A stretch of DNA of 28,646 bases from a virus (taxonomy: Duplodnaviria > Heunggongvirae > Uroviricota > Caudoviricetes), in the IMG/VR virus record IMGVR_UViG_2925914267_000001, positions 1-28,646 of that record; one strand, written 5' to 3'. Position numbers and translations under genes: made by a program. Of this stretch, positions 1,017 through 21,984 are shown piece after piece (within the stretch, counting starts at the first letter, position 1; every line of letters starts with the position of its first letter). The notes beneath the pieces are model-generated. The model made no database searches, was not told the DNA's origin, and saw only the letters and a list, made by a program, of their open reading frames with translations.

Positions 1017-1241
1017 ATGCATACAGTTTCTGAAAATCAGTGCGGTAAATACGCATTACTGCTGCAACAGGCCAGAACCGAAGCACAGGCCGACGCAGCG
1101 ACGCGCTTTTCTTCTCATCTTGACGCCATGATTCGCCACATCACAAAGGCGGAGTTATCCCGCGTAGAGATAGTCGAGCTGCTCAGTCAGGAGTCGGAAA
1201 AATTTCACAATATCGGATTGTCTCGCGGGGAGGTGCTTTGA
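1017..1241 (+). CDS. orf80-like hypothetical early protein
   Basis: ATG 1017 preceded by GGAG; the listed ORF start at 984 is a TTG; stop overlaps the next start (TGATG at 1239-1243). Confidence 0.7.
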
Positions 1242-1543
1242 TGTCCTGTTCTCGTTCAGTTGTATTACTGAATAACGCCTTAAAAATCACCGTTATGAAA
1301 AATGGCGATCTATCTCTTATTCAACTTGGTCTTGATAAAGAAAAACGCGAAATAACTGAGTCTGTTATCGCGATTTATCAGAACGAATTAAATCTCCTGT
1401 CTGATGTGGTCAATTTACTTGTTAAACGCGCTGTATTTCACAAGCAAATCTCCTCCGTGGATGAACTGACGAAATTAACGACAGAAATTGCCAGCTATTG
1501 CGCTGATGAATTTAAAAAACTTAACGACAAAAGGAACTGGTAA
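1241..1543 (+). CDS. orf81-like hypothetical early protein
   Basis: ATG 1241 overlaps the upstream stop; conserved position in the P2 early operon. Confidence 0.7.
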   Translation: MSCSRSVVLLNNALKITVMKNGDLSLIQLGLDKEKREITESVIAIYQNELNLLSDVVNLLVKRAVFHKQISSVDELTKLTTEIASYCADEFKKLNDKRNW

Positions 1544-1767
1544 TGCCGGACAACGTAGATTTTATTCAGGAACAACAGGCTGAATTACTGGAGCGTCAGA
1601 TTAACGCGGCAAGGGTAAAACATTGCGGAGCTTCTGCGCTGGTTTGCGAAGAGTGTGACGCGCCAATACCTGCTGCCCGTCGTGCGGCTTATCCGTCAGC
1701 CACGCGTTGTGTTTCCTGCCAGTCAGTCTTTGAAGCAAAAAACAAACATTACCGGAGAACGGCATGA
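1543..1767 (+). CDS. DksA/TraR-type C4 zinc-finger protein (orf82-like)
   Basis: 74 aa; Cys pairs CEEC and CVSC separated by about 17 residues; start overlaps the upstream stop (TAATG). Confidence 0.75.
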   Translation: MPDNVDFIQEQQAELLERQINAARVKHCGASALVCEECDAPIPAARRAAYPSATRCVSCQSVFEAKNKHYRRTA

Positions 1768-2038
1768 GTATTCGTATTGAAATTGGCGAACGTTATGTCG
1801 TTACCAGTGACAGCTTTCAGTTTATTCTCCACGAGAAAAAGAGAGCGGAAGCGGTAAAAACGCCGGTCAGGAATGGCTGGCGGTGGTTGGTTATTATCCG
1901 AAATTAAGCCAGCTCGTTTCCGGCCTGATGCATCACGATATTCTGACCGGAAGCGCAAAGTCTTTTGCTGATTTAAACGCGCAGGTTGAGCAACTCAGCA
2001 GGCGTTGTTCAGAGGCTTTTGGCTCATATGGCCGTTAA
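1764..2038 (+). pseudogene. orf83-like early gene, reading frame broken by an apparent 1-nt deletion
   Basis: ATG 1764 with GGAG upstream stops at 1905-1907 after 47 codons; a second frame stays open from about 1811 to TAA 2036-2038 with no upstream start and ends in the usual overlap with the A start. The two parts join if one A is restored near 1848-1850. Confidence 0.55.
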
Positions 2039-4103
2039 AGCCTCCGGGCGTTTTGTCCCTCCTTCAGCATTTGCTGCAGGCACCGGTAAGGCGTTTACCG
2101 GTGCTTATGCATGGAACGCGCCACGCGAGGCCGTCGGGCGCGAAAGACCCCTTACACGTGACGAGATGCGTCAGGTGCAAGGTGTTTTATCCACGATTAA
2201 CCGCCTGCCTTACTTTTTGCGCTCGCTGTTTACTTCACGCTATGACTACATCCGGCGCAATAAAAGCCCGGTACACGGGTTTTATTTCCTCACATCCACT
2301 TTTCAGCGTCGTTTATGGCCGCGCATTGAGCGTGTGAATCAGCGCCATGAAATGAACACCGACGCGTCGTTACTGTTTCTGGCAGAGCGTGACCACTATG
2401 CGCGCCTGCCGGGAATGAATGACAAGGAGCTGAAAAAGTTTGCTGCCCGTATCTCATCGCAGCTTTTCATGATGTATGAGGAACTCAGCGATGCCTGGGT
2501 GGATGCGCATGGCGAAAAAGAATCGCTGTTTACGGATGAGGCGCAGGCTCACCTCTATGGTCATGTTGCTGGCGCTGCACGTGCTTTCAATATTTCCCCT
2601 CTCTACTGGAAAAAATACCGTAAAGGGCAGATGACCACGAGGCAGGCATATTCTGCCATTGCCCGTCTGTTTAACGATGAGTGGTGGACTCATCAGCTTA
2701 AAGGCCAGCGTATGCGCTGGCATGAAGCGTTACTGATAGCTGTCGGGGAGGTCAATAAAGACCGTTCTCCTTATGCCAGTAAACACGCCATTCGTGATGT
2801 GCGTGCGCGCCGCCAGGCAAATCTGGAATTTCTTAAATCGTGTGACCTTGAAAACAGGGAAACCGGCGAGCGCATCGACCTTATCAGTAAGGTGATGGGC
2901 AGTATTTCTAATCCTGAAATTCGCCGGATGGAGCTGATGAACACCATTGCCGGTATTGAGCGTTACGCCGCCGCAGAGGGTGATGTGGGGATGTTTATCA
3001 CGCTGACCGCGCCGTCAAAGTATCACCCGACTCGTCAGGTCAGAAAAGGCGAAAGTAAAACCGTTCAGCTTAATCACGGCTGGAACGATGAGGCATTTAA
3101 TCCAAAGGATGCGCAGCGTTATCTCTGTCGTATCTGGAGCCTGATGCGCACGGCATTCAAGGATAATGATTTACAGGTCTACGGTTTGCGAGTCGTCGAG
3201 CCACACCACGACGGAACGCCGCACTGGCATATGATGCTTTTTTGTAATCCACGCCAGCGTAACCAGATTATCGAAATCATGCGTCGCTATGCGCTCAAAG
3301 AGGATGGCGACGAAAGAGGAGCCGCGCGAAACCGTTTTCAGGCAAAACATCTTAACCGGGGCGGTGCTGCGGGGTATATCGCGAAATACATCTCAAAAAA
3401 CATCGATGGCTATGCACTGGATGGTCAGCTCGATAACGATACCGGCAGGCCGCTGAAAGATACTGCTGCGGCTGTTACCGCATGGGCGTCAACGTGGCGC
3501 ATCCCGCAATTTAAAACGGTTGGCCTGCCGACAATGGGGGCTTACCGTGAACTACGCAAATTGCCTCGCGGCGTCAGCATTGCTGATGAGTTTGACGAAC
3601 GCGTTGAGGCTGCACGTGCCGCCGCAGACAGTGGTGATTTTGCGTTGTATATCAGCGCGCAGGGTGGGGCAAATGTTCCGCGTGATTGCCAGACTGTCAG
3701 AGTCGCCCGTAGCCCGTCGGATGACGTTAACGAGTACGAGGAAGAAGTCGAGAGAGTGGTCGGCATTTACGCGCCGCATCTCGGCGCGCGTCATATTCAT
3801 ATCACCAGAACGACGGACTGGCGCATTGTGCCGAAAGTTCCGGTCGTTGAGCCTTTGACTTTAAAAAGCGGCATCGCCGCGCCTCGGAGTCCTGTCAATA
3901 ACTGTGGAAAGCTCACTGGTGGTGATACTTCGTTACCGGCTCCCACACCTTCTGAGCACGCTGCAGCAGTGTTGGATTTGATTGATATAGGGGTGGTTAG
4001 TTGGAATGATGCTGAGGTGATGACAGTTCTTAGGAAGAGATTAAAAGATTACTCACGGGAATTGATGGTATTCAAAGGAAGGGCTAGCCAACGCCCAATC
4101 TGA
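2028..4103 (+). CDS. A: replication initiation protein A (rolling-circle nickase)
   Basis: 691 aa from ATG 2028 (MAVKASGRFVPPSAF...); long match to recalled P2 gpA. The last roughly 50 codons differ from my recollection of P2 and sit in AT-rich DNA. Confidence 0.9.
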   Translation: MAVKASGRFVPPSAFAAGTGKAFTGAYAWNAPREAVGRERPLTRDEMRQVQGVLSTINRLPYFLRSLFTSRYDYIRRNKSPVHGFYFLTSTFQRRLWPRIERVNQRHEMNTDASLLFLAERDHYARLPGMNDKELKKFAARISSQLFMMYEELSDAWVDAHGEKESLFTDEAQAHLYGHVAGAARAFNISPLYWKKYRKGQMTTRQAYSAIARLFNDEWWTHQLKGQRMRWHEALLIAVGEVNKDRSPYASKHAIRDVRARRQANLEFLKSCDLENRETGERIDLISKVMGSISNPEIRRMELMNTIAGIERYAAAEGDVGMFITLTAPSKYHPTRQVRKGESKTVQLNHGWNDEAFNPKDAQRYLCRIWSLMRTAFKDNDLQVYGLRVVEPHHDGTPHWHMMLFCNPRQRNQIIEIMRRYALKEDGDERGAARNRFQAKHLNRGGAAGYIAKYISKNIDGYALDGQLDNDTGRPLKDTAAAVTAWASTWRIPQFKTVGLPTMGAYRELRKLPRGVSIADEFDERVEAARAAADSGDFALYISAQGGANVPRDCQTVRVARSPSDDVNEYEEEVERVVGIYAPHLGARHIHITRTTDWRIVPKVPVVEPLTLKSGIAAPRSPVNNCGKLTGGDTSLPAPTPSEHAAAVLDLIDIGVVSWNDAEVMTVLRKRLKDYSRELMVFKGRASQRPI

Positions 4104-4328
4104 TTATGTTTTGTAATGATAAGTTAATGCTGAATGAGTGGCTCGCGCATAACCTTGCGGGAAAAAGAGCATATTATGTACAGTTTTGAGGTTGGCTAGA
4201 GGGGATGGGCGAGATAGTTTGTGTTTGTGTGGGTTTGAGAAGTTTGATGCGCACATCAAAAATTGATACAACTGATTGAAAAAATGATAAAAAAGCTGTT
4301 AAATGCGTCAGTTTTCTAAGGGGGGAAG

Positions 4329-4454
4329 ATGAAAAAAATAACCAAGAGAAAAGAGAGAGAGATATTTTACGATCCTATTTACATCGTACAGGAAGAGATG
4401 TTGTATCTGCAGGGCGCTCTAAGATTAATCCTATTTCAAAAGCATCAAAAATAA
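4329..4454 (+). CDS. small basic ORF (41 aa) in the island leader, function unknown
   Basis: ATG 4329 follows a G-rich Shine-Dalgarno-like AAGGGGGGAAG; sequence MKKITKRKEREIFYDPIYIVQEEMLYLQGALRLILFQKHQK; AT-rich context; may be spurious. Confidence 0.25.
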   Translation: MKKITKRKEREIFYDPIYIVQEEMLYLQGALRLILFQKHQK

Positions 4455-4624
4455 ATCGTTGGATAAATGCGCAAATTAAAGATGGATTAAATTGCGAAAT
4501 AAGGAAAAATAGAGACCTTTTCCTTACTTTACCTAAAAATGAACTTTTCAAGTAATTACCATCGTACAATGCAAGCCATACAAACGATTAGGCATCTTAC
4601 GGGGCGGAAGATATTTAATAACCA

Positions 4625-5455
4625 ATGTTACCGTCTTTGTTTGTTGACTTTTCGAAGATTGAATATATTTCTGCATCTGCCGCATTGGTATTGACCGCGG
4701 AATTATCAAAATGGGATGATTCGGTAAGGCAACGCATTCGCCCAAAAGTGAAAACGTGGAATAAAAACATACTCTCTCAATTTGATGAGTTGGGTTTTTT
4801 TGACTTATTTAGAAATAAAGATAGTTTTGAGCTTGAAAAAGAAAAGGAACCAAGTAATATCCGTTTTGTTAAGTATATGAAAGGACATTTACATGATGAT
4901 GAAAAAACTCAGCATTTAAAAAAAGAAATAAAGCGTATTGTGGGAGAAGACCTTGGTAAATGGACTTTCCTATACAGTGGTTTGTCCGAAGCTATTACAA
5001 ATGTTGTTCATCATGCTTATCCAGATAATAAAGGCTATCATGAGCATGATAAAAAATGGTATTTAACTGCTTCATATGATAGTTCAAGTAGAATAATAAA
5101 AGTAGTGTTCTATGATCAAGGTATTACAATTCCTGGGTCTTTGCCGGAATCTAAACTCCATGAAAAGGTTTTAAATTACCTTTCGAAGTTACCGCTTGCA
5201 GAACGAAAAAGAGATGAACAATTGTTAAAGGCTGCAGTTGAAATCAAACGTTCTAGTACGGGGGAAGAGGATCGGGGTAAAGGCTTGCAGGACTTGTTGG
5301 AGTTCATAAAGCAACGTGGTGAAGGTTATCTTTCAATTATGAGTGGTAAAGGCCTTTACAAATACTCACAACATGATAAAAAATCTGAGGTAAAATCAGT
5401 AAGCTTCGCTCTGCCTGTTTGTGGTACACTTATAGTATGGAGTACAAAGCTATGA
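4625..5455 (+). CDS. GHKL (HATPase_c) kinase-like ATPase, RsbW/SpoIIAB-like
   Basis: 276 aa; N-box E122-AITN-VVHH-A131 (nt 4988-5017), G1-like D164-Q-G166, G2-like G218-K-G-L221 and G241-K-G-L244; AT-rich; stop overlaps the next start. Confidence 0.6.
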   Translation: MLPSLFVDFSKIEYISASAALVLTAELSKWDDSVRQRIRPKVKTWNKNILSQFDELGFFDLFRNKDSFELEKEKEPSNIRFVKYMKGHLHDDEKTQHLKKEIKRIVGEDLGKWTFLYSGLSEAITNVVHHAYPDNKGYHEHDKKWYLTASYDSSSRIIKVVFYDQGITIPGSLPESKLHEKVLNYLSKLPLAERKRDEQLLKAAVEIKRSSTGEEDRGKGLQDLLEFIKQRGEGYLSIMSGKGLYKYSQHDKKSEVKSVSFALPVCGTLIVWSTKL

Positions 5456-5751
5456 TTACTAGATTGGTTGCTAGCCTCATGAAAACATTGAAGATTGGTT
5501 CAGAGTTCTCGAAAGTTCCCAGAGGCCGCTATCGTACTGACGGGACAGCAAGTGGTGAACGGTTTAGAGAAGATTTCTTAAGAAAGCGTCTAAGCTTGCT
5601 TTCTGCTGGGGAAAAATTGCAGATAGTCATCGATGATGATGTCGAAGGATATGGTTCGTCTTTTTTGGTGGAGGGCTTTGCGGGCATGGTAAAATATGGA
5701 TATATGCATGCCAATGAGTTATTGTCTAAAATTGAAATTAAAATATACTAA
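5452..5751 (+). CDS. small STAS-like (DUF4325-like) protein, putative partner of the GHKL protein
   Basis: 99 aa from ATG 5452, which overlaps the upstream stop as ATGA, with GGAG at 5439-5442; C-terminal IVIDDDVEGYGSSFLVEGFAGMV resembles the STAS-like SSF-motif region. ATG 5437 is an alternative start. Confidence 0.45.
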   Translation: MITRLVASLMKTLKIGSEFSKVPRGRYRTDGTASGERFREDFLRKRLSLLSAGEKLQIVIDDDVEGYGSSFLVEGFAGMVKYGYMHANELLSKIEIKIY

Positions 5752-5822
5752 TCCTGATTTTGATTTCTATAAAAAGAAAATAGAACAATATATCAACGAG
5801 GCGCAGTTTAATTCGAAACGAT

Positions 5823-6485
5823 ATGAGCCAACAGTCGAATAATCCGATGTTTATTTTAGGTGAGGGTTCTGGTGAGTTCTCACCTAGTTTGCTTTTTATC
5901 AAGAAGGATAATGAAGAAGGCCTGAGTGCTACTCATGCAGTTAAGGATATTAATACGATAATTGAAGTAGCTAGTTCTAATATTGTTGATGCAATACGGC
6001 ATCCACCTGAAACGCCTATTTTATCGTCATCACTTATTACGGCTCTTATTAGTACTATTTGTGCGGCCACTGCTGCATTTGCATATAATAAAGTCCATTG
6101 GCGTTCTGTTGTTAAACGGGAGACTAAAACCAAACTCCTGGAGAGTATTTCAGATGTGGTTAATGAGTTGCGTTCTGATGCTATTAGTTATTGGTTGAAG
6201 GGGTATTCAAAAAAGTCGGCGAAGTCTCTCTTAGAAGAGGAAATGAGAATTAAGGCGAGTTTAAATATAATAAATTCGACTATAACAATATATGTTCAGC
6301 AAGAGTCGCGATGGAAAAGAAAGGATATTGAAGCTCAGTTAAGGGTTTTTCATGACGAACTTTTTGATATTATAACAGGTGATGATTTTGAGTCTCAGGC
6401 AAGGAAGCAGGATAAGGCAAAGGTTTCTGCTATTTCTACAAAGTGTGTGGCTTTTCGCGTTTTATTAAATACCATCAAGTTTTAA
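5823..6485 (+). CDS. single-pass membrane protein, putative effector, function unknown
   Basis: 220 aa; hydrophobic helix ILSSSLITALISTICAATAAFAY (about nt 6018-6086); charged K/E-rich C-terminal part; same strand and AT-rich composition as the two genes upstream. Confidence 0.5.
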   Translation: MSQQSNNPMFILGEGSGEFSPSLLFIKKDNEEGLSATHAVKDINTIIEVASSNIVDAIRHPPETPILSSSLITALISTICAATAAFAYNKVHWRSVVKRETKTKLLESISDVVNELRSDAISYWLKGYSKKSAKSLLEEEMRIKASLNIINSTITIYVQQESRWKRKDIEAQLRVFHDELFDIITGDDFESQARKQDKAKVSAISTKCVAFRVLLNTIKF

Positions 6486-6617
6486 GATAGCCATGCATGA
6501 GTTTGGTGCATGAAAATGCATGAGGTTTTACGAATTATTTTGGCTAAAATCAGCCTGCCCTGACTGGCTACGGCAGATATCATGCACCTGCATTAAAACC
6601 GCCCCATGAAGCGGGCG

Positions 6618-6636
6618 GGCGAGGCGGGGAAAGCAC
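6618..6636 (+). other. cos: cos site, 19-nt cohesive end GGCGAGGCGGGGAAAGCAC
   Basis: Exact match to the P2/186 cohesive-end sequence as I recall it; located between the cargo island and Q, as expected for the packaged genome termini. Confidence 0.8.
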
Positions 6637-6780
6637 TGCGCGCTGGCGGTGGTGCTGATTTTATTTTTTCAGCGTCTGAGCGCGTCGTGAAGGCGCTTAG
6701 TCTGCCCGTTGAGGCGTTGGTGTGTCTGCGGGGTGTTTTGTGCGGTGGTGAGCGTGTGAGCGCGTGATGACGGGGGTGTA

Positions 6781-6804
6781 AAAAAAGCCGCCCGCAGGCG
6801 GCGA
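6781..6804 (-). terminator. rho-independent terminator downstream of Q
   Basis: On the - strand GCCGCC-TGCG-GGCGGC stem-loop followed by TTTTTTT, starting 4 nt after the Q stop codon (6808-6810). Confidence 0.65.
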
Positions 6805-6807
6805 TGT

Positions 6808-7841
6808 TCAGCCGTTGTCAGTGTCCAGTGAGTAGTTTTTAAAGCGGATGACCTCCTGACCGAGCCAGCCGTTTATCTCGCGGATCCTGTCCTGTAGCGG
6901 GATAAGCTCATTGCGGACAAAGACCTTTGCCACTTTCTCAATATCACCCAGCGACCCGACGTTCTCCGGCTTGCCGCCCATCAACTGAAAGGGGATGCGG
7001 TGCGGCGTCCAGCAGGTCAGCGGCGCTGGCTTTTTTGATATTAAAAAAATCGTCCTTCGTTGCCACTTCACTGAGCGGGATAATTTTAATGCCGTCGGCT
7101 TTCCCCTGCGGGGCATAGAGAAACAGATTTTTAAAGTTGTTGCGGCCTTTCGACTTGACCATGTTTTCGCGAAGCATTTCGATATCGTTGCGATCCTGCA
7201 CGGCATCGGTGACGTACATGATATATCCGGCATGAGCGCCGTTTTCGTAATACTTGCGGCGGAACAGCGTGGCCGACTCATTCAGCCAGGCAGAATTAAG
7301 GGCGCTGAGATATTCCGGCAGGCCGTACAGCTCCTGATTAATATCCGGCTCCAGCAGGTGAAACACGGAGCCGGGCGCGAAGGCTGTCGGCTCGTGAAGG
7401 ACGGCACCCACCAGTAAACATCCTCCTCCACGCCACGGCGGGTATATTTTGCCGGTGAGGTTTCCAGTCTGATGACCTTACCGGTGGTGCTGTAACGCTT
7501 TTCCAGAAACGCATTACCGAACACCAGAAAATCCAGCACAAAGCGGCTGAAATCCTGCTGGAAAGCCACGGGTGCGGAATAAACGTTGAAGCCAGAATAT
7601 TACGTTTGACGTAAATCGGTGAGCTGTGATGTACGGCAGCACGCAGGCTTTTTGCCAGACCGGTAAAGCTGACCGGTGGCTCATACCATCTGCCGTTACT
7701 GATGCACTCGACGTAATCCAGAATGTCACGGCGGTCGAGTACCGGCACCGGTTCACCAAAGGTGAATGCCTCCATTTTCGGGGCGCTGGCGGTCATTTTT
7801 TTTGCCGCAGGTTGCGGTGTTTTCCCTTTTTTCTTGCTCAT
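6808..7841 (-). pseudogene. Q: portal protein gene Q, frame interrupted at three points
   Basis: Four consecutive - strand ORF pieces (7338-7841, 7282-7569, 6944-7411, 6808-7281) together cover a 344-aa P2 Q-like protein. Breaks are near 7560 and 7396 (1-nt deletions in G runs on the + strand) and near 6998-7006 (net +1). Confidence 0.8.
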
Positions 7842-9614
7842 CAGTAAAACTCCAGAATGGTGGATGTCAGCGGGGTGCTGATACCGGCGGTGAGTGGCTC
7901 ATTTAACAGGGCGTGCATGGTCGCCCAGGCGAGGTCGGCGTGGCTGGCTTCCTCGCTGCGGCTGGCCTCATAGGTGGCGCTGCGTCCGCTGCTGGTCATG
8001 GTCTTGCGGATAGCCATAAACGAGCTGGTGATGTCGGTGGCGCTGACGTCATATTCCAGACAGCCACGGCGGATAACGTCTTTTGCCTTGAGCACCATTG
8101 CGGTCTTCATTTCCGGCGTGTAGCGGATATCGCGCGCGGCGGGATAGAACGAGCGCACGAGCTGGAACACGCCGACACCAAGGCCGGTGGCATCAATACC
8201 GATGTATTCGACGTTGTATTTTTCGGTGAGTTTGCGGATGGATTCCGCCTGAGTGGCAAAGTCCATGCCTTTCCACTGGTGACGCTCAAGTATTCTGAAT
8301 TTGCCACCGACCACCACCGGCGGTGCCAGCACCACGCATCCGGCGCTGTCGCCACGGTGTGACGGGTCGTAACCAATCCATACCGGACGTGAGCCGAACG
8401 GATTTGCGGCAAACGGCGCATAGTCTTCCCATTCTTCCAGCGTGTCGACCATGCAGCGTTGCAGCTCCTCGAACGGGAACACCGACGCCTTGTCGTCAAC
8501 AAATTCACACATGAACAGGTTTTTTAAAATCGTCGGCGCTGTTTTCACGTTTGAGCTGCTCAATGTCGAACAGTGTGCAGCCACCTTTCAGGGCGTCCTC
8601 AATGGTGACAATCTGCCGCCACTGGCCGTCCGCACAGAGAAGACCTCCGGCAAGGGCGTTATGACTGACGTCGATTTCCACGCGTTCGGCGGCGCTGGCG
8701 CGTCCCCGGTTAAACAGTTCACCGGACCAGAACGGATAGGCGTCGTGCGCCAGCGTGGACGGGGTGGAGAAATAGGTCGAGCGCAGGTGACTCTGTGAGG
8801 CCATACCTGATGCCACCTTACGCAGTACCTGAAAATTCGGGATCCAGAAAATCTCGTCGACGTACAGGTCGCCGTTATGGCTCTGCGCGGTGTTGGAGTT
8901 GGTGCCGAGAAAAATCAGTTTTGCGCTGTTATTGCCCAGGACAATCGGGTCACCGGTCAGGTCAACGTCAACCAGCCGGGCAAAGGCGATGATGTATTCG
9001 CGGAACACATACGCCTGCGTTTTACTGGCCGACAGAAAAATCTGGTTATGACCGGTTTTCAGGGCGCGCAGCAGCGCCTCGCGGGAAAAATAAAACGTCG
9101 CGCCAATCTGGCGGGATTTCAGGATATCGCGGATGCGGTGCTCAAGCCCGGCGCGATACCAGTGCAACTGATAGTCGAAAGACTGCTCAAAGAAAATCTG
9201 CTCCAGCTTTTCGATGGCCTCGTCACTGAAAAAATTCTTTTTCGGTTTGCGACGCCCGCCTTTGTTGCGGTTAGCGACGTTCGGATTAAGGTCTGCCTCG
9301 TTGCCGGTCTGACTGTAGCGGTTGACCCGCGCCAGCCGTTCAATCTGGCGTCCCAGCAGGTCAATTTCCTTGAAGTCACCGCCGGTTTTCTGCGGTTTGA
9401 TGATGAGCTGGGTCAGCCGCGCTTCCAGACTCATTTCGACACGGCTGATGGGGGCAACGCTGTCCCAGCCGTCGCGCTGTTTCCAGCTCTGCACCGTCGG
9501 GCGTTTCATCTGCAACATGGCGGCAATCTGCGGCACGGAAAACCCCTGCCAGTACAGCAGCGCCGCCTGACGACGCGGGTCGTGTAAAAGAGTGGTGTCT
9601 GTGGTGATGGTCAT
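7841..9614 (-). pseudogene. P: terminase large subunit gene P, frame interrupted once
   Basis: ORFs 8505-9644 and 7841-8584 together match the 590-aa P2 gpP; ATG at 9614 (MTITTDTTLLHDP) after GAGG; break at the T6/A6 run 8519-8524; stop overlaps the Q start. Confidence 0.8.
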
Positions 9615-9787
9615 GAATACCTCGCCGTGATGAATACACGGCAAGGCTACTGAGTCGCGCCCCGCGATTCGCTAAGGTGCTGTTGTGTCAGTGATAAGCC
9701 ATCCGGGACTGATGGCGGAGGATGCGCATCGTCGGGAAACTGATGCCGACATGTGACTCCTCTAATCACTATTCAGGACTCCTGACA
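9615..9787. promoter_or_regulatory. divergent late-promoter region between P and O (Ogr-dependent in P2)
   Basis: Intergenic region between divergently oriented P and O. By P2 knowledge it holds the two late promoters, but I found only imperfect TGT-N12-ACA-like dyads. Confidence 0.35.
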
Positions 9788-15540: not shown

Positions 15541-15985
15541 GTTTAAGCGTTTTGAAGACCGGCTGGCCGGACTGACTGAATCGCTGTCACCGTCAGGGCG
15601 TCGGCGACTGAGTGCCGAACTGGCGAAACGTCTGCGGCAGAGTCAGCAGCGTCGGGTGATGGCACAGAAAGCCCCGGACGGCACACCCTACGTGCCACGC
15701 CAGCAGCAGAGCGCCAGAAAAAAGACTGGTCGTGTTAAGCGAAAAATGTTTGCGAAACTTATCACCAGTCGTTTTTTGCATATCCGCGCCAGCCCGGAGC
15801 AGGCATCAATGGAGTTTTACGGCGGGAAGTCGCCGAAAATCGCCAGTGTGCATCAGTTCGGTCTGTCGGAAGAAAACCGGAAAGACGGTAAGAAAATTGA
15901 TTATCCGGCGCGTCCTCTGCTCGGCTTTACCGGTGAGGATGTGCAGATGATTGAAGAGATTATCCTGGCTCACCTCGACCGTTAG
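15533..15985 (+). CDS. S: tail completion protein S
   Basis: 150 aa; matches P2 gpS in length and order. Confidence 0.85.
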   Translation: MNEFKRFEDRLAGLTESLSPSGRRRLSAELAKRLRQSQQRRVMAQKAPDGTPYVPRQQQSARKKTGRVKRKMFAKLITSRFLHIRASPEQASMEFYGGKSPKIASVHQFGLSEENRKDGKKIDYPARPLLGFTGEDVQMIEEIILAHLDR

Positions 15986-16051
15986 TTGTGCCATTCCCGA
16001 CACCTCATCGGCACATTGCCGCCGGTATGACCCGGCGGCATCCTTCCCGTT

Positions 16052-17944: not shown

Positions 17945-18548
17945 TTCGCGCCTGCTGCCGACCGGCTCATCACCGCTTGAAGTTGCCGCCGCAAAAGCCT
18001 GTGCGGAAATTGAAAAAACGCCGGTCAGTATTCGTGAACTGTGGAACCCGGATACCTGTCCGGCAAATCTGCTGTCGTGGCTGGCGTGGTCATTTTCGGT
18101 TGACCGCTGGGATGATAAGTGGCCGGAAGCGACAAAACGCGCTGTTATCCGCGATGCGTATTTCATTCACTGCCATAAGGGCACTATAGGCGCAATCCGG
18201 CGTGTGGTGGAGCCGCTCGGCTATCTGATTGAGGTGAGGGAGTGGTGGCAGCTCAACGAGGAACCGGGGACGTTCCGCATCGTTGTTGGCGTGCTTGAGC
18301 AGGGTATTACCGAGGAAATGTATCAGGAGCTGGAGCGTCTCGTTGCTGATGCAAAACCTGCAAGCCGCCATCTGACGGGACTGGCTATCAGTTTAAGTAC
18401 AACCGGCAACATTTTTGCCGGTGCGGGATGCTATCACGGCGACGCCCTGACGGTTTATCCCTACACCCCGGAGGCCATTATTGTCGGAGGGGATTATTTC
18501 CCGGCCTCGGCCATTCATTTAATTGATAACCTGAGAGTAAACGCATGA
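17937..18548 (+). CDS. I: baseplate protein I
   Basis: 203 aa; N-terminal MSDSRLLPTGSSPLEVAAAKACAEIEKTPVSIRELWNPDT matches P2 gpI; longer than I recall for P2 (176 aa). Confidence 0.8.
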   Translation: MSDSRLLPTGSSPLEVAAAKACAEIEKTPVSIRELWNPDTCPANLLSWLAWSFSVDRWDDKWPEATKRAVIRDAYFIHCHKGTIGAIRRVVEPLGYLIEVREWWQLNEEPGTFRIVVGVLEQGITEEMYQELERLVADAKPASRHLTGLAISLSTTGNIFAGAGCYHGDALTVYPYTPEAIIVGGDYFPASAIHLIDNLRVNA

Positions 18549-19846
18549 CAGTGAAATACTACGCCATTCTGACTAATCAGGGCGCAGCACGGCTGGCTAA
18601 CGCGACGATGCTTGGCAGTAAGCTGAATCTGACGCAAATGGCCGTTGGTGATGCGAATGGTGTCTTGCCGACACCAGACCCGGCACAGACAAAACTGATT
18701 AATCAGAAACGCATTGCACCGCTGAATCTTCTGAGTGTTGACCCGAACAACCAGAGCCAGATTATTGCGGAGCAAATCATCCCTGAGAACGAGGGCGGAT
18801 TCTGGATCCGTGAGATTGGGCTTTATGATGATGAAGGCGTACTCATTGCGGTGGCCAACTGCCCGGAAACGTACAAACCGCAGTTACAGGAAGGCAGTGG
18901 TCGTACCCAGACTATCCGCATGATTCTGGTTGTCACGAATATCGAAGCCATCACGCTGAAAATCGACCCGTCGGTGGTACTGGCGACCCGTAAATATGTG
19001 GATGATGAAGTCCTGGAATTAAGGCTGTATGTGGATGACCAGATGAGAAACCACATTGCCGCACAGGATCCTCATACCCAGTATGCACAGAAACATAATC
19101 CGACATTTACCGGAGAACCAAAAGCCCCGACGCCTGCCGCAGGAAATAACACCACGCGGATTGCGACCACTGAGTTTGTTCAGGCCGCTATTACCGCTCT
19201 GATTAACGGCGCGCCAGCCACGCTGGACACACTGAAAGAAATTGCCGCAGCCATTAACAATGACCCGAAATTCAGCACCACCATTAACAATGCGCTGTCA
19301 GGTAAGCAGCCACTGGATGAGACGCTGACTCATTTGAGCGGAAAGGATGTTGCCGGCCTTCTCGCATACCTTGGTTTGGGAGAAGGCTCTGTATTACCCG
19401 TTGGTGTGCCTGTTCCGTGGCCTTCAGCCACACTGCCAACAGGCTGGCTGAAATGCAACGGGGCGGCATTTTCTGCTGAAGAATACCCGGAACTGGCAAA
19501 GGCTTACCCGACAAATATATTGCCTGATTTACGTGGTGAATTTATTCGTGGCTGGGATGACGGGCGCGGAGTGGACAGTAGCCGGACGTTGTTGTCGTGG
19601 CAAAAAGGCTCTTATCTGGTTCAGGAAGCCAATATATCACCCGACAGCGTGGTGCAGTTTTCGGTAAACGACATTGCCCTGCTGGGATGGGATAAAACTG
19701 AAACCAATTCAGATATTCTCAGAGCGAAAAGTATACCTACAGAACATATCTGGAACCCCGTTCCAGTGGGAGCCTGGGGGATTCAGTATCTGGGTTATGC
19801 AAGGCCACGTAACATTGCATTTAACTACATCGTAAGGGCTGCATGA
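18545..19846 (+). CDS. H: tail fibre protein H: constant N-terminal part plus the currently expressed variable C-terminal part
   Basis: 433 aa; N-terminus MTVKYYAILTNQGAARLANA... is P2 gpH-like; C-terminal part has a phage tail-collar-like stretch (PVGVPVPWPSATLPTGWLKCNG); the crossover site lies inside the gene at 19359-19384. Confidence 0.85.
   Translation: MTVKYYAILTNQGAARLANATMLGSKLNLTQMAVGDANGVLPTPDPAQTKLINQKRIAPLNLLSVDPNNQSQIIAEQIIPENEGGFWIREIGLYDDEGVLIAVANCPETYKPQLQEGSGRTQTIRMILVVTNIEAITLKIDPSVVLATRKYVDDEVLELRLYVDDQMRNHIAAQDPHTQYAQKHNPTFTGEPKAPTPAAGNNTTRIATTEFVQAAITALINGAPATLDTLKEIAAAINNDPKFSTTINNALSGKQPLDETLTHLSGKDVAGLLAYLGLGEGSVLPVGVPVPWPSATLPTGWLKCNGAAFSAEEYPELAKAYPTNILPDLRGEFIRGWDDGRGVDSSRTLLSWQKGSYLVQEANISPDSVVQFSVNDIALLGWDKTETNSDILRAKSIPTEHIWNPVPVGAWGIQYLGYARPRNIAFNYIVRAA
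19359..19384 (+). repeat. left gix/hix-like 26-bp crossover site TTCTCGCATACCTTGGTTTGGGAGAA
   Basis: 12-2-12 structure like hix/gix; 14 bp (TTGGTTTGGGAGAA) are perfectly inverted at 21309-21322. Confidence 0.7.
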
Positions 19847-20463
19847 TGAGCAAGAAAACCATGACTACAGCGGTGCTGAATGAATCGCGGCTGGCAACAG
19901 TTGCAGGAGAGGTTGTTGTCCACAGCTACGATAATAAGACGCGGGAATACCTTTGCACGTCAACCGAATATCTGGCTGTGGGCGTTGGCCTTCCTGCACA
20001 TTCATGCACTGATGCCCCCGGGGAAAGGCGGGCTGGTTATGCAATTTGCCGCACAGCCGACCTGACCGCGTGGGAGTACGTGCCGGACCATCGGGGTGAG
20101 ACAGTCTATAACACAGAAACCCGTGAGGCAGCAGAAATCACCACTCCGGGGGATTACCCTGAAAACACAACCACTGTCGCCCCGTTAACGCCATACGATG
20201 AATGGGATGGTGAGAAATGGGTGACAGATACTGAGGCACAGCATAGCGCCGCAGTAGGCGCGGCAGAAACACAGCGACAGTCACTGATTGATACTGCAAT
20301 GGCTTCCATTAATCTGATTCAACTGAAATTGCAGGCCGGGCGAAAACTGACGCAGACAGAAACCACCCGGCTTAACGTCGTGCTGGATTACATTGACGCG
20401 GTGACGGTAACTGATACCAGCACCGCGCCGGATATCAATTGGCCTGCTCCCCCGGAGGCGTAG
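19843..20463 (+). CDS. G: tail fibre assembly chaperone (Tfa), expressed orientation
   Basis: 206 aa; start overlaps the H stop; sits inside the invertible segment, like U of Mu. Confidence 0.75.
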   Translation: MMSKKTMTTAVLNESRLATVAGEVVVHSYDNKTREYLCTSTEYLAVGVGLPAHSCTDAPGERRAGYAICRTADLTAWEYVPDHRGETVYNTETREAAEITTPGDYPENTTTVAPLTPYDEWDGEKWVTDTEAQHSAAVGAAETQRQSLIDTAMASINLIQLKLQAGRKLTQTETTRLNVVLDYIDAVTVTDTSTAPDINWPAPPEA

Positions 20464-20851
20464 GCCAGACGGGATTTGATGTATCAACGCGCATCAGTAA
20501 GACCCGATATTTTTTCCATTCAGACAACGCGGCGGTTTCTTCTGCCGTCGCGATTTCCGCATCAAAAGCATCCTGTCTCCAGACTATTTCCTTATCAGCC
20601 ATTGAACGCAATACCGTTCTTTTCTGTTCAGCCTGAATAATCTGTTGTTCAGCGGAGAGTGGCGGGATATCAATCCATGCAGGATTACCATTTTTATCAG
20701 CCCCCAGCGTTTTGCCTTCTGGCGCTACGCCTGTGTAAATTGCCATTGTTTCATCATCAACATCAACGCCATTTTCAGGCCATGAACCGGCGCTGATATA
20801 TACCTCTTTTAGTGCTTTCGGATAGAAAGAGCCTTTATAAAATTTATTCAT
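20435..20851 (-). CDS. alternative tail fibre assembly chaperone (Tfa'), silent orientation
   Basis: 139 aa from ATG 20851 (MNKFYKGSFYPKALKEVYI...); convergent with G and overlapping it by 29 bp; begins just after the stop of the alternative fibre segment. Confidence 0.7.
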   Translation of the reverse strand: MNKFYKGSFYPKALKEVYISAGSWPENGVDVDDETMAIYTGVAPEGKTLGADKNGNPAWIDIPPLSAEQQIIQAEQKRTVLRSMADKEIVWRQDAFDAEIATAEETAALSEWKKYRVLLMRVDTSNPVWPTPPGEQAN

Positions 20852-20853
20852 TC

Positions 20854-21335
20854 TTAATACCCCAGCGCGATAAAACAACAATCTTCGGTGCCCTCTCCGG
20901 ATGGCGACCAGTTCTGAATACTGATATGCGTTCTGCTGGCAATACGCACATTCATCGCGGCATTGTAGCCAGATGTTCCACGGTTTCCGGTCGCAAACAA
21001 GCCTGCATAGGGAAAAGCAAATGGTAAGGCATATCCAGCATCAGCTCCCTTTTGTGTTGCCACCGTTCCCCACTGCAACATAAGTTTCACCGGGTTTCCT
21101 GTCGTCGCAATGCATGGAATGTAGATGTAGCCATTACCTGACATCATTGACCTGAAGCTGTCTAAATCCAGTAACTTCGAGGCATTATCTGCTCCAACAT
21201 CTCGTGTTGCAGCGGTCCCTAACTGGAGCGCATTTCGGAAGGCTGATACATCAGAAATATCAGATCCATTAGCCGATTTCTGCATAGCTCTGGAGGCTCT
21301 ATTTATCGTTTCTCCCAAACCAACGTTTATGAAAA
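20854..21335 (-). CDS. alternative tail-fibre C-terminal segment (H' variable part) with no start of its own; expressed only after inversion
   Basis: - strand frame open from the right gix-like site to stop 20854; reads ...FINVGLGETIN... across the crossover, sharing GLGE with H at the left site. Confidence 0.7.
21310..21335 (+). repeat. right gix/hix-like 26-bp crossover site TTCTCCCAAACCAACGTTTATGAAAA
   Basis: Inverted partner of the left site; resembles hixL TTCTTGAAAACCAAGGTTTTTGATAA; lies 55 bp upstream of the invertase start. Confidence 0.7.
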
Positions 21336-21390
21336 TGCAGAGATAACGGGCAAGTGGCATCATCTCCGGTTTTTATTCAGGGGGATGCTC

Positions 21391-21984
21391 ATGCTTATTG
21401 GCTATGTACGCGTGTCAACAAATGACCAGAACACGGAATTGCAGCGTAACGCGCTGGAGTGCGCAGGATGTGAGCTGATTTTTGAGGATAAAATCAGCGG
21501 CACGAAGTCCGACAGGCCGGGGCTGAAAAAACTGCTCAGAACATTATCGGAAGGTGACACTCTGGTAGTCTGGAAGCTGGACCGGCTGGGGCGTAGTATG
21601 CGGCATCTGGTCATTCTGGTTGAGGAGCTGCGCGAACGCGGCATTAATTTTCGCAGCCTGACGGATGCCATTGATACCAGCACGCCGATGGGGCGTTTTT
21701 TCTTTCATGTGATGGGTGCCCTGGCTGAAATGGAGCGAGAACTCATTGTCGAGCGGACACGCGCCGGACTGGAGGCGGCCAGAGCCAAAGGTCGTATTGG
21801 TGGCAGACGTCCGAAACTCACCGCGAGTGAGTGGGAGCAGGCCGGGCGGTTGCTGGCTGCAGGGGAATCACGTCAACGCGTGGCACTGATTTTTGATATT
21901 GGCCTGTCCACGCTCTATAAAAAATTCCCCGCCTCAGTGACAAAAAATAAATTGTGTCATCCCTTAGCCAACCGGGACAAATAG
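21391..21984 (+). CDS. serine recombinase, DNA invertase of the Gin/Cin/Pin/Hin family
   Basis: MLIGYVRVSTNDQNTELQRNAL... with the catalytic Ser in YVRVSTNDQ; C-terminal helix-turn-helix-like region; strong similarity to Gin as I recall it. Confidence 0.85.
   Translation: MLIGYVRVSTNDQNTELQRNALECAGCELIFEDKISGTKSDRPGLKKLLRTLSEGDTLVVWKLDRLGRSMRHLVILVEELRERGINFRSLTDAIDTSTPMGRFFFHVMGALAEMERELIVERTRAGLEAARAKGRIGGRRPKLTASEWEQAGRLLAAGESRQRVALIFDIGLSTLYKKFPASVTKNKLCHPLANRDK

Follow-up and report, generated by a model that had tools for sequence, protein, structure and literature searches.

We examined a 28,646-nt stretch of DNA assigned to the Caudoviricetes (IMG/VR record IMGVR_UViG_2925914267_000001, positions 1 to 28,646), referred to below as the window, which holds a P2-like Escherichia coli prophage. 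Our subject is the cargo hotspot of this prophage, located between the replication gene A and the portal gene Q, and in particular its left border. Identity with P2-type A was found to break off sharply inside the A coding sequence and to be followed by the tail of a much more diverged A, a tail that accompanies one particular set of three cargo genes. A crossover between diverged A alleles at a floating left edge of the hotspot, combined with exchange of the adjoining block, is in our judgment the likely explanation of these observations.

The identity break inside gene A

The G+C content was 0.534 over the body of gene A (2028-3971; 0.53-0.57 within the gene) and decreased to 0.417 over its variant end (3972-4103), 0.387 over the gap that follows (4104-4328) and 0.362 over the cargo genes (4329-6485). 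Values of 0.36-0.42 thus extend across the whole of 3972-6485, and the content returned to 0.549 from 6578 on. A preliminary description of this DNA, made from its letters alone, had called the region AT-rich from roughly the last 50 codons of A to 6485. The composition is indeed far from uniform and the drop lies where it was reported; the variant end itself amounts to 44 codons including the stop (3972-4103), that is, 43 variant residues.

The same description had placed the hotspot boundary inside the A coding sequence and the end of the P2 match around ...SEHAAAVL, in agreement with our measurements. Ungapped comparison with seven P2-like sequences (L-413C and six others) located the end of P2-type identity right after this peptide, at 3963-3972 and 77-86 nt 3' of the nick in the replication origin (ori). 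Against L-413C, the stretch 3972-4049 held 32 mismatches in its 78 nt, compared with 4 in the 600 nt immediately upstream (Fisher p = 5e-29); across all seven sequences the counts were 4-35 upstream and 27-32 in 3972-4049, with Fisher p values from 7e-12 to 5e-29. Megablast matches to P2-like phages ended at 3971-4008. The product is a gpA protein of 691 aa with a variant, shortened C-terminus.

The sequence past the break was still recognizable as gene A. In the 26-residue tail encoded by 3972-4049, 11-15 residues were identical to those of other gpA tails (42-58% protein identity), and tblastn comparison with six gpA tails gave E = 1e-9 to 1e-14 when the eight shared upstream residues were included. 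The closest tail was that of pro483, which matched at 15 of the 26 residues that make up the diverged part. Mismatches in the tail were distributed 12/6/13-14 over the three codon positions; since second positions changed least, the comparison suggests that the diverged tail evolved as coding sequence. Homology to gene A ends at about 4049, and the 3' 54 nt of the gene had no detectable relative. As a result, the last 70 residues of P2 gpA are missing from this protein, and the 43 variant residues stand there instead. No likeness to the missing A C-terminus, or to any other sequence searched, was detected in 4050-4256. The possibility that 4104-4256 is a decayed remnant of that C-terminus was considered and rejected, as tblastn returned only chance-level matches (E of at least 0.04). 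The preliminary description had further proposed that the junction that delivered the cargo lies within A; the break is located there, and what it joins is two diverged versions of A rather than foreign cargo to A.

The diverged tail proved to be tightly linked to its cargo. Of 5426 complete E. coli genomes, 14 contained the segment 3975-4328, comprising the tail and the gap. Each of these carried the same three cargo genes, and the variant tail was 100% identical in 13 of them. The tail and intergenic segment occurred in no phage record. Searches for a donor of the tail gave only ordinary gpA tails at 52-66% identity by tblastn against phages, two E. coli fragments in a protein search with the tail, no match when species-representative genomes were scanned with a degenerate DNA pattern, and nothing beyond the 14 E. 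coli genomes in DNA searches.

Comparison of the 3' ends of gene A across cargo types disclosed that the gpA C-termini are not identical in phages with unrelated cargo, as the preliminary description had anticipated. P2, L-413C and YpM_50 encode the full 761 aa followed by orf91. In the loci with HEPN cargo gpA diverges about 20 codons before the stop, and in the Panacea and FDAARGOS_1250 loci in the last 3-5 codons. Deeper changes were observed in pro483 (diverged and cut at 723 aa; DUF4238 cargo), WCHEC96200 (cut at 687 aa; Dcm-type methyltransferase cargo), O157:H7 SS17 (full-length at 760 aa, with the tail strongly diverged from about 65 nt past the nick; ABC-three-component cargo) and strain 789 (near full-length at 750 aa, with the tail strongly diverged from about 40-55 nt past the nick; ATP-dependent nuclease cargo). 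These four resemble the window in that divergence from P2-type A starts 40-90 nt 3' of the nick, in that the tails are AT-richer than the A body, and in that each tail comes with its own cargo; they differ from it in that the tail of the window is unique. In every class examined, the G+C content of the tail lay between those of the A body and the cargo, at 0.42-0.52.

Ahead of the break, the features of the replication endonuclease were preserved. The protein matches Pfam Phage_GPA (PF05840, E = 1e-122), and both the HUH motif HHDGTPHWH at residue 393 and the Tyr450/Tyr454 pair (YIAKY, 450-454) are intact; the role of the tyrosines was reportedly described by Odegrip and Haggard-Ljungquist in 2001. 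The P2 nick position 29892 (NC_001895) maps to about 3886 in the window, inside gene A, and the ori core at about 3843-3925 was almost invariant in every P2-like sequence compared. The full C-terminal region, corresponding to P2 residues about 650-761 and conserved out to Serratia phages, is not present, as the protein stops at 691 aa and residues 650-675 alone are homologous. The Prokaryotic Genome Annotation Pipeline (PGAP) labels the gene for the 691-aa gpA as a pseudogene ('replication endonuclease, incomplete, missing C-terminus'), a label that was found in every inspected complete genome with the same cargo (loci L001, L002 and L075-L079; gene A at 1129-3147 of the locus). The HCM-28C-2 prophage is otherwise complete despite its 691-aa gpA. 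The truncated protein probably still works.

The hotspot borders and the low-diversity block

This part of P2, with its orf91-tin-old genes, was reportedly described as the 'TO region' by Odegrip et al. 2006. The hotspot itself is already known: in their passages on the region, Rousset et al. 2022 (PMC9122126), Vassallo et al. 2022 (PMC9519451) and a further paper (PMC13586616) present the gpA-gpQ hotspot of P2 as a reservoir of anti-phage systems and identify it with the TO region bearing orf91-tin-old. In the window, A ends at 4103 and is followed by the AT-rich segment, the cohesive end site (cos), and then portal homology and the terminase on the minus strand, which places a variable segment between A and Q and next to cos. 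Related prophages have the same conserved flanks with unrelated content, namely HEPN, Panacea and DUF2975, DUF4238, ABC-three-component, methyltransferase, nuclease or orf91-tin-old cargo. The order A, cargo, cos, Q and the AT-rich variable cargo inside conserved flanks are therefore those of the P2 hotspot, the difference from the published one being the shortening of gpA to 691 aa, which is among the deepest junctions sampled.

To describe the left border, the last 428 nt of P2 A were compared with E. coli genomes and the end-points of homology were sampled. These fell at 428, 426, 424, 417, 410, 408, 404, 403, 400, 395, 378, 370, 364, 357, 345, 329, 160, 139 and 91 nt, and at least 80% of the 428-nt query was kept in 1398 of 1630 genomes and 72 of 76 phage records. 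It follows from these end-points and counts that the left border floats inside A: it is usually in the last few dozen nt of the gene and occasionally deep, as in the window. The right border, by comparison, was fixed: in all cargo types compared it fell at 6578-6589, some 30-40 nt to the left of cos.

Alignment of seven complete genomes with this cargo revealed a block of low diversity. The number of variable sites per 200 bp was 6-15 in A as far as about 3850; between that point and 6600 it was 0-5, and in 6600-6800 it reached 34. In two of the seven genomes, only one of the 103 sites that differ over 7.2 kb was located between 3840 and 6689. This drop in diversity indicates a much more recent origin for the block comprising the ori core, tail, cassette and cos than for the backbones that surround it. 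Its sequence pattern points to homologous recombination, with crossovers that would lie in A at one end and past cos, on its right, at the other.

The side of cos on which the cassette is found was not constant. In Serratia and Lonsdalea P2/186-like prophages the order is A, cos, cassette, Q, so that the cassette is on the other side of cos, and in E. coli and Raoultella the same cassette is between A and cos (cos-side comparison: L014, 5811-5829, and L023, about 4625-4689, versus the window, 6618-6636, and L030, 6292-6310). Placement on either side of cos implies two separate insertion points within one hotspot.

Taken together, we envisage the following history, whose order of events is a reconstruction. 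A diverged donor A would itself already have been cut short at about 4049; a P2-type A would then have been joined at 3963-3972 to the 3' end of this much more diverged, AT-richer gene. The product would be the 691-aa gpA, which keeps the HUH motif, the Tyr-Tyr core and ori, with the three-gene cassette and what may be its own promoter beginning 225 bp downstream of A. The block that takes in the ori core, tail, cassette and cos would move between P2 backbones by homologous recombination, with one crossover within A and a second on the right-hand side of cos, and the junction at 3972 would be an older event of the same kind. Because no donor of the tail was found, we only infer the two-step part of this history. 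The features on which the reading draws, together with those of the cargo described below, are collected in Table 1.

Table 1. Positions of the features discussed, numbered from the first letter of the window
Feature	Position	Strand	Remarks
Cargo hotspot of the P2-like E. coli prophage, cos-proximal	gene A to portal gene Q		end of the early operon
Gene A (replication endonuclease gpA)	2028-4103	+	691 aa vs 761 aa in P2; C-terminus variant, truncated
P2 ori nick-site motif GCGCCTCGGAGTCCTGTCAA	3879-3898	+	exact match; from the NC_001895 rep_origin annotation and anchor mapping
Putative recombination junction	3963-3972	+	last stretch common with P2-type A before divergence
Diverged homologous A tail LDLIDIGVVSWNDAEVMTVLRKRLKD	3972-4049	+	26 codons; G+C about 0.42; detected by tblastn
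End of the variant gpA: 17 codons (YSRELMVFKGRASQRPI), then stop	4050-4103	+	no homologue detected
True intergenic gap	4104-4328	+	225 bp
Candidate sigma-70 promoter	4276-4304	+	TTGAAA (4276-4281), 17 nt, TTAAAT (4299-4304); TG just upstream of the second hexamer
Shine-Dalgarno sequence AAGGGGGG	4318-4325	+	precedes the ATG at 4329
Cargo gene 1, GHKL-type ATPase or kinase-like protein	4329-5455	+	376 aa in the intact form; here leaves a 276-aa open reading frame, 4625-5455
Cargo gene 2, DUF4325 (STAS-like)	5452-5842	+	129 aa; 1-nt insertion at 5740 in the window
Cargo gene 3	5823-6485	+	220 aa; single predicted membrane helix (about residues 68-90) followed by a modelled four-helix bundle; intact
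Right border of the hotspot	6578-6589	+
19-nt P2 cos GGCGAGGCGGGGAAAGCAC	6618-6636	+	exact match

The intergenic gap and the three-gene cassette

The preliminary description had taken 4104-4624 for a 520-bp non-coding leader, unusual for a compact phage genome. This interpretation did not hold, because 4329-4624 is the start of the first cargo gene in a conserved frame and the true gap is 225 bp; most of the supposed leader is coding sequence of gene 1, frameshifted in the window. In the complete genomes gene 1 starts at the ATG equivalent to 4329, behind AAGGGGGG, and it is intact in 14 of them. Relative to these, the window carries deletions of 1 nt at 4349, 2 nt at 4538 and 1 nt at 4639, which leave each of the three reading frames with a piece of the N-terminus and thereby create the appearance of a non-coding leader. 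The 276-aa open reading frame at 4625 had 347 homologues, nearly all of 370-400 aa, and the E. coli form (P0002, WP_032254602, 376 aa) was 100% identical over the shared part. Residues 1-100, encoded by 4329-4624, were conserved across 20 aligned homologues and 45 loci and as far as Nitrosomonas, Vibrio and Shewanella, among others. This N-terminal conservation, together with the deletions, identifies 4329-4624 as coding and limits the gap to 225 bp. A public 305-aa form of gene 1, starting at the internal Met72, has 35 member sequences (P0001); frameshifts in the A/G-rich first 70 codons seem to recur, or else to reflect a recurrent sequencing problem.

Two parts can be distinguished in the gap, 4104-4256 being found only in this E. 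coli prophage lineage and 4257-4328 travelling with the cassette. Homology to other copies of the cassette starts at 4257-4259 for a Raoultella P2-like prophage and an Enterobacter chromosome, at 4291 for a Yersinia island and at 4329 for a Cronobacter lambdoid prophage. The idea that the leader carries the cassette promoter survived in a narrower form, as a candidate was found inside the true gap: on sequence grounds, TTGAAA-17-TTAAAT is the likeliest candidate for a promoter belonging to the cassette itself, and its two hexamers and TG persist in five unrelated genomic contexts in which the sequence farther upstream is unalignable. The early operon is repressed in a P2 lysogen, where expression of the cassette would need a promoter of its own. 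A consensus scan did not pick up 4276-4304; it proposed a promoter at 4235-4263, which is partly outside the conserved region, and 4276-4304 was preferred. No terminator was found by a scan of the plus strand after A. An Rfam search of the gap gave no relevant match at E <= 1, and its RNA fold was no more stable than those of shuffled sequences (z-score -0.42). A retron or other non-coding RNA was considered for the gap and rejected, given the lack of a reverse transcriptase domain, of an Rfam match at that threshold and of anything but an ordinary fold. Two further observations concern composition: on the plus strand of 4104-4400, G strongly outnumbers C (GC skew 0.36-0.49), and GT-rich runs such as GTTTGTGTTTGTGTGGGTTTGAG occur at about 4217-4239, in the part of the gap without a relative elsewhere; no function was found for them.

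The product of gene 1 gave an HATPase_c_2 match of 16.9-17.7 bits, under the Pfam cut-off of 27.4, and only sub-threshold RsbW/SpoIIAB matches in NCBIfam. Its AlphaFold2 model (predicted local distance difference test score 77) showed a C-terminal half whose predicted fold matched GyrB ATPase and SpoIIAB at E of about 3e-4 to 3e-3, and the sequence contains an invariant Asn226 and the motifs DQG.GIP and GKG. Comparison by sequence with solved structures returned nothing relevant. Gene 2, which overlaps the gene 1 stop, matches Pfam PF14213 at 24.1 bits (cut-off 23), and its motif YGSSFL.E.F.G was at least 90% conserved in 39 homologues. For gene 3, a fold search yielded generic four-helix bundles, none at E <= 0.001. 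No match to PADLOC models was obtained with any of the three proteins.

Genes 1 and 2 were adjacent in 44 of 45 loci, and gene 3 was detectable in about two thirds. Five genera (Escherichia, Raoultella, Pantoea, Serratia and Lonsdalea) had the cassette in P2-like prophages; it was also observed in a Cronobacter lambdoid prophage and in chromosomal islands of Enterobacter and of Yersinia, in the latter beside a TIR gene; judged by this distribution, it appears to be a mobile unit. In Yersinia enterocolitica (L010-L013), where the cassette adjoins TIR-domain and DUF2971 genes, gene 1 had 92% protein identity and the whole cassette 76.6% DNA identity, and the high protein identity relative to the DNA identity suggests strong purifying selection on the cassette proteins.

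The part of the supplement of Rousset et al. (PMC9122126) that concerns the P2 hotspot lists 'hypothetical + DUF4325 + hypothetical' (WP_032254602 + WP_032254618 + WP_032254601) there as uncharacterised, and the entries for P4 hotspots in the same paper include an HATPase_c / DUF4325 pair. This listing and the defence-island context are the only indications of defence, and the cassette may be an anti-phage system. Its architecture resembles that of CapK-CapS / VapKSC (Chambers et al. 2026, PMC13373217). The first gene here would, like theirs, encode a protein with helices at its N-terminus, then an alpha/beta domain and a kinase-like domain of the GHKL type; in both, the next gene, with overlapping stop and start, encodes a small STAS-like protein with a conserved Ser-Ser motif; a third gene is effector-like; and the operon resides in prophages and defence islands. 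At the sequence level, gene 2 thus has the position and the conserved Ser/Thr of a STAS substrate. The differences are that gene 2 here encodes 129 aa without a winged helix-turn-helix (wHTH) domain and that gene 3 encodes a predicted membrane-anchored helical protein rather than a PIN nuclease, with no PIN match, so neither a PIN VapC as third component nor a wHTH-bearing CapS repressing a downstream immune operon is present. The likeness, drawn from architecture and not from CapK or VapK sequences, would be one of analogy rather than membership.

Further differences between the window and its relatives were noted, in part outside the hotspot. Indels relative to near-identical complete genomes were located at 4349, 4538, 4639, 5740, 7004, 7394, 7560 and 8520, among others; they break cargo genes 1 and 2 and split the portal gene Q (open reading frames 6808-7281 and 7338-7841) and the terminase gene P (7841-8584 and 8505-9644). 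In addition, 15610-16015 and 18370-21952 (G+C about 0.46-0.55) did not align to the otherwise collinear HCM-28C-2 prophage. The second of these segments spans open reading frames 18545-19846, 19843-20463, 20435-20881 (minus strand), 20854-21363 (minus strand) and 21385-21984, in the tail-fibre to Z/fun region.

Competing explanations and meaning for P2 prophages

Several other histories could place an AT-rich segment inside A. In the simplest, foreign cargo was inserted directly into A by a single illegitimate event and is preceded by a long untranslated AT-rich leader, in agreement with a drop in G+C and a loss of identity that start inside A and with the fact that no long open reading frame spans 4104-4624 in the window. 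We regard it as very unlikely, since the 26 codons past the break are a homologue of gpA tails, the cassette common to other contexts starts only at about 4257, and 4329-4624 makes up the conserved 5' third of the gene for a 376-aa protein, found intact in 14 genomes and in distant taxa. Alternatively, gpA itself could have joined foreign DNA near the nick by nicking or strand transfer at ori, during initiation or termination of rolling-circle replication. The hotspot does sit between ori and cos, and the deepest classes start 40-90 nt 3' of the nick (at about 3925-3941 in strain 789 and pro483, about 3950 in SS17 and 3972 in the window); none starts at the nick itself (about 3886), however, homologous A coding sequence continues past every deep junction, and most prophages break 330-428 nt from the nick. 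The clustering of deep junctions is equally explained by the near-invariant ori core, which would be the last high-identity stretch available for a crossover, and a junction made by gpA seems improbable to us. A third history dispenses with recombination and lets the tail drift towards A+T in place, its selective constraint relaxed once a truncation had made it useless. Pseudogenised E. coli sequence tends to lose G+C, and tails of intermediate G+C (0.42-0.52) do occur in every class; such drift would nevertheless have to produce about 40% divergence over 78 nt beside less than 1% in the preceding 600 nt, a tail that is 100% identical in 13 of 14 genomes, and mismatches that spare second codon positions (6 of 31), and we give it hardly any credence.

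The crossover between diverged A alleles, with exchange of the block, accounts for the tail homology and the tail-cargo linkage, and remains the reading that we favour. Weighing against it are the absence of a donor for the diverged tail, the treatment of the truncated gpA as a pseudogene by PGAP, and the possibility that the low diversity partly reflects recent common descent of the segment instead of repeated transfer; moreover, the comparison included seven genomes, and most of the variation within the block came from one of them. A separate question is whether the frameshifts of the window are real. If the prophage had decayed in its source strain, 4329-4624 would be the remnant of a pseudogene with a 276-aa product or none, a prospect to which we assign somewhat less than an even chance. 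The window has three frameshifts in gene 1 and one in gene 2, its indels break Q and P, 22 gap openings separate it from the closest complete genome over 15.6 kb, and the N-terminally shortened 305-aa form exists in public sequences. Pointing the other way, the indels are scattered single-base changes, several of them in or near short homopolymers, which fits error-prone reads, and the cargo shows 3 mismatches in 2.5 kb against intact relatives, which would be odd for a long-dead gene. The indels could come from error-prone sequencing or from a decaying prophage copy, and one sequence cannot separate the two.

These results bear on the way in which P2 hotspots are surveyed. Where they delimit the hotspot, the three papers on it (PMC9122126, PMC9519451, PMC13586616) bound the region by the whole genes gpA and gpQ, and those passages do not describe a variable left border inside A; surveys bounded in this way miss a left border that cuts into an essential replication gene. 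The portion of the 2026 Nucleic Acids Research paper (PMC13586616) that covers core genes reports that the P2 'primase' (gpA) is annotated as a pseudogene more often than other core genes. Pseudogene labels on the 691-aa gpA may contribute to this excess, and the flagging of junction-truncated A genes as pseudogenes can inflate counts of 'defective' P2 prophages. The same paper, in its discussion of cargo exchange, considers homologous recombination and leaves the mechanism unresolved; the low-diversity block described here would be a concrete example of homologous exchange of cargo. Before a long stretch ahead of a cargo gene is read as a 'non-coding leader', it should be compared with intact relatives.

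Two wider proposals are put forward tentatively, as we consider them possible rather than probable. One is that the C-terminal 70-110 residues of gpA are a dispensable, exchangeable module of the hotspot, in which case the essential gpA unit would end about 80 nt past the ori nick and many gpA 'pseudogenes' in surveys would be working junction variants. The other is that the cargo, a candidate kinase-STAS defence module, constitutes an anti-phage system not described before; its GHKL kinase, resembling CapK/VapK, would phosphorylate the DUF4325 STAS-like partner and thereby release a small membrane effector.

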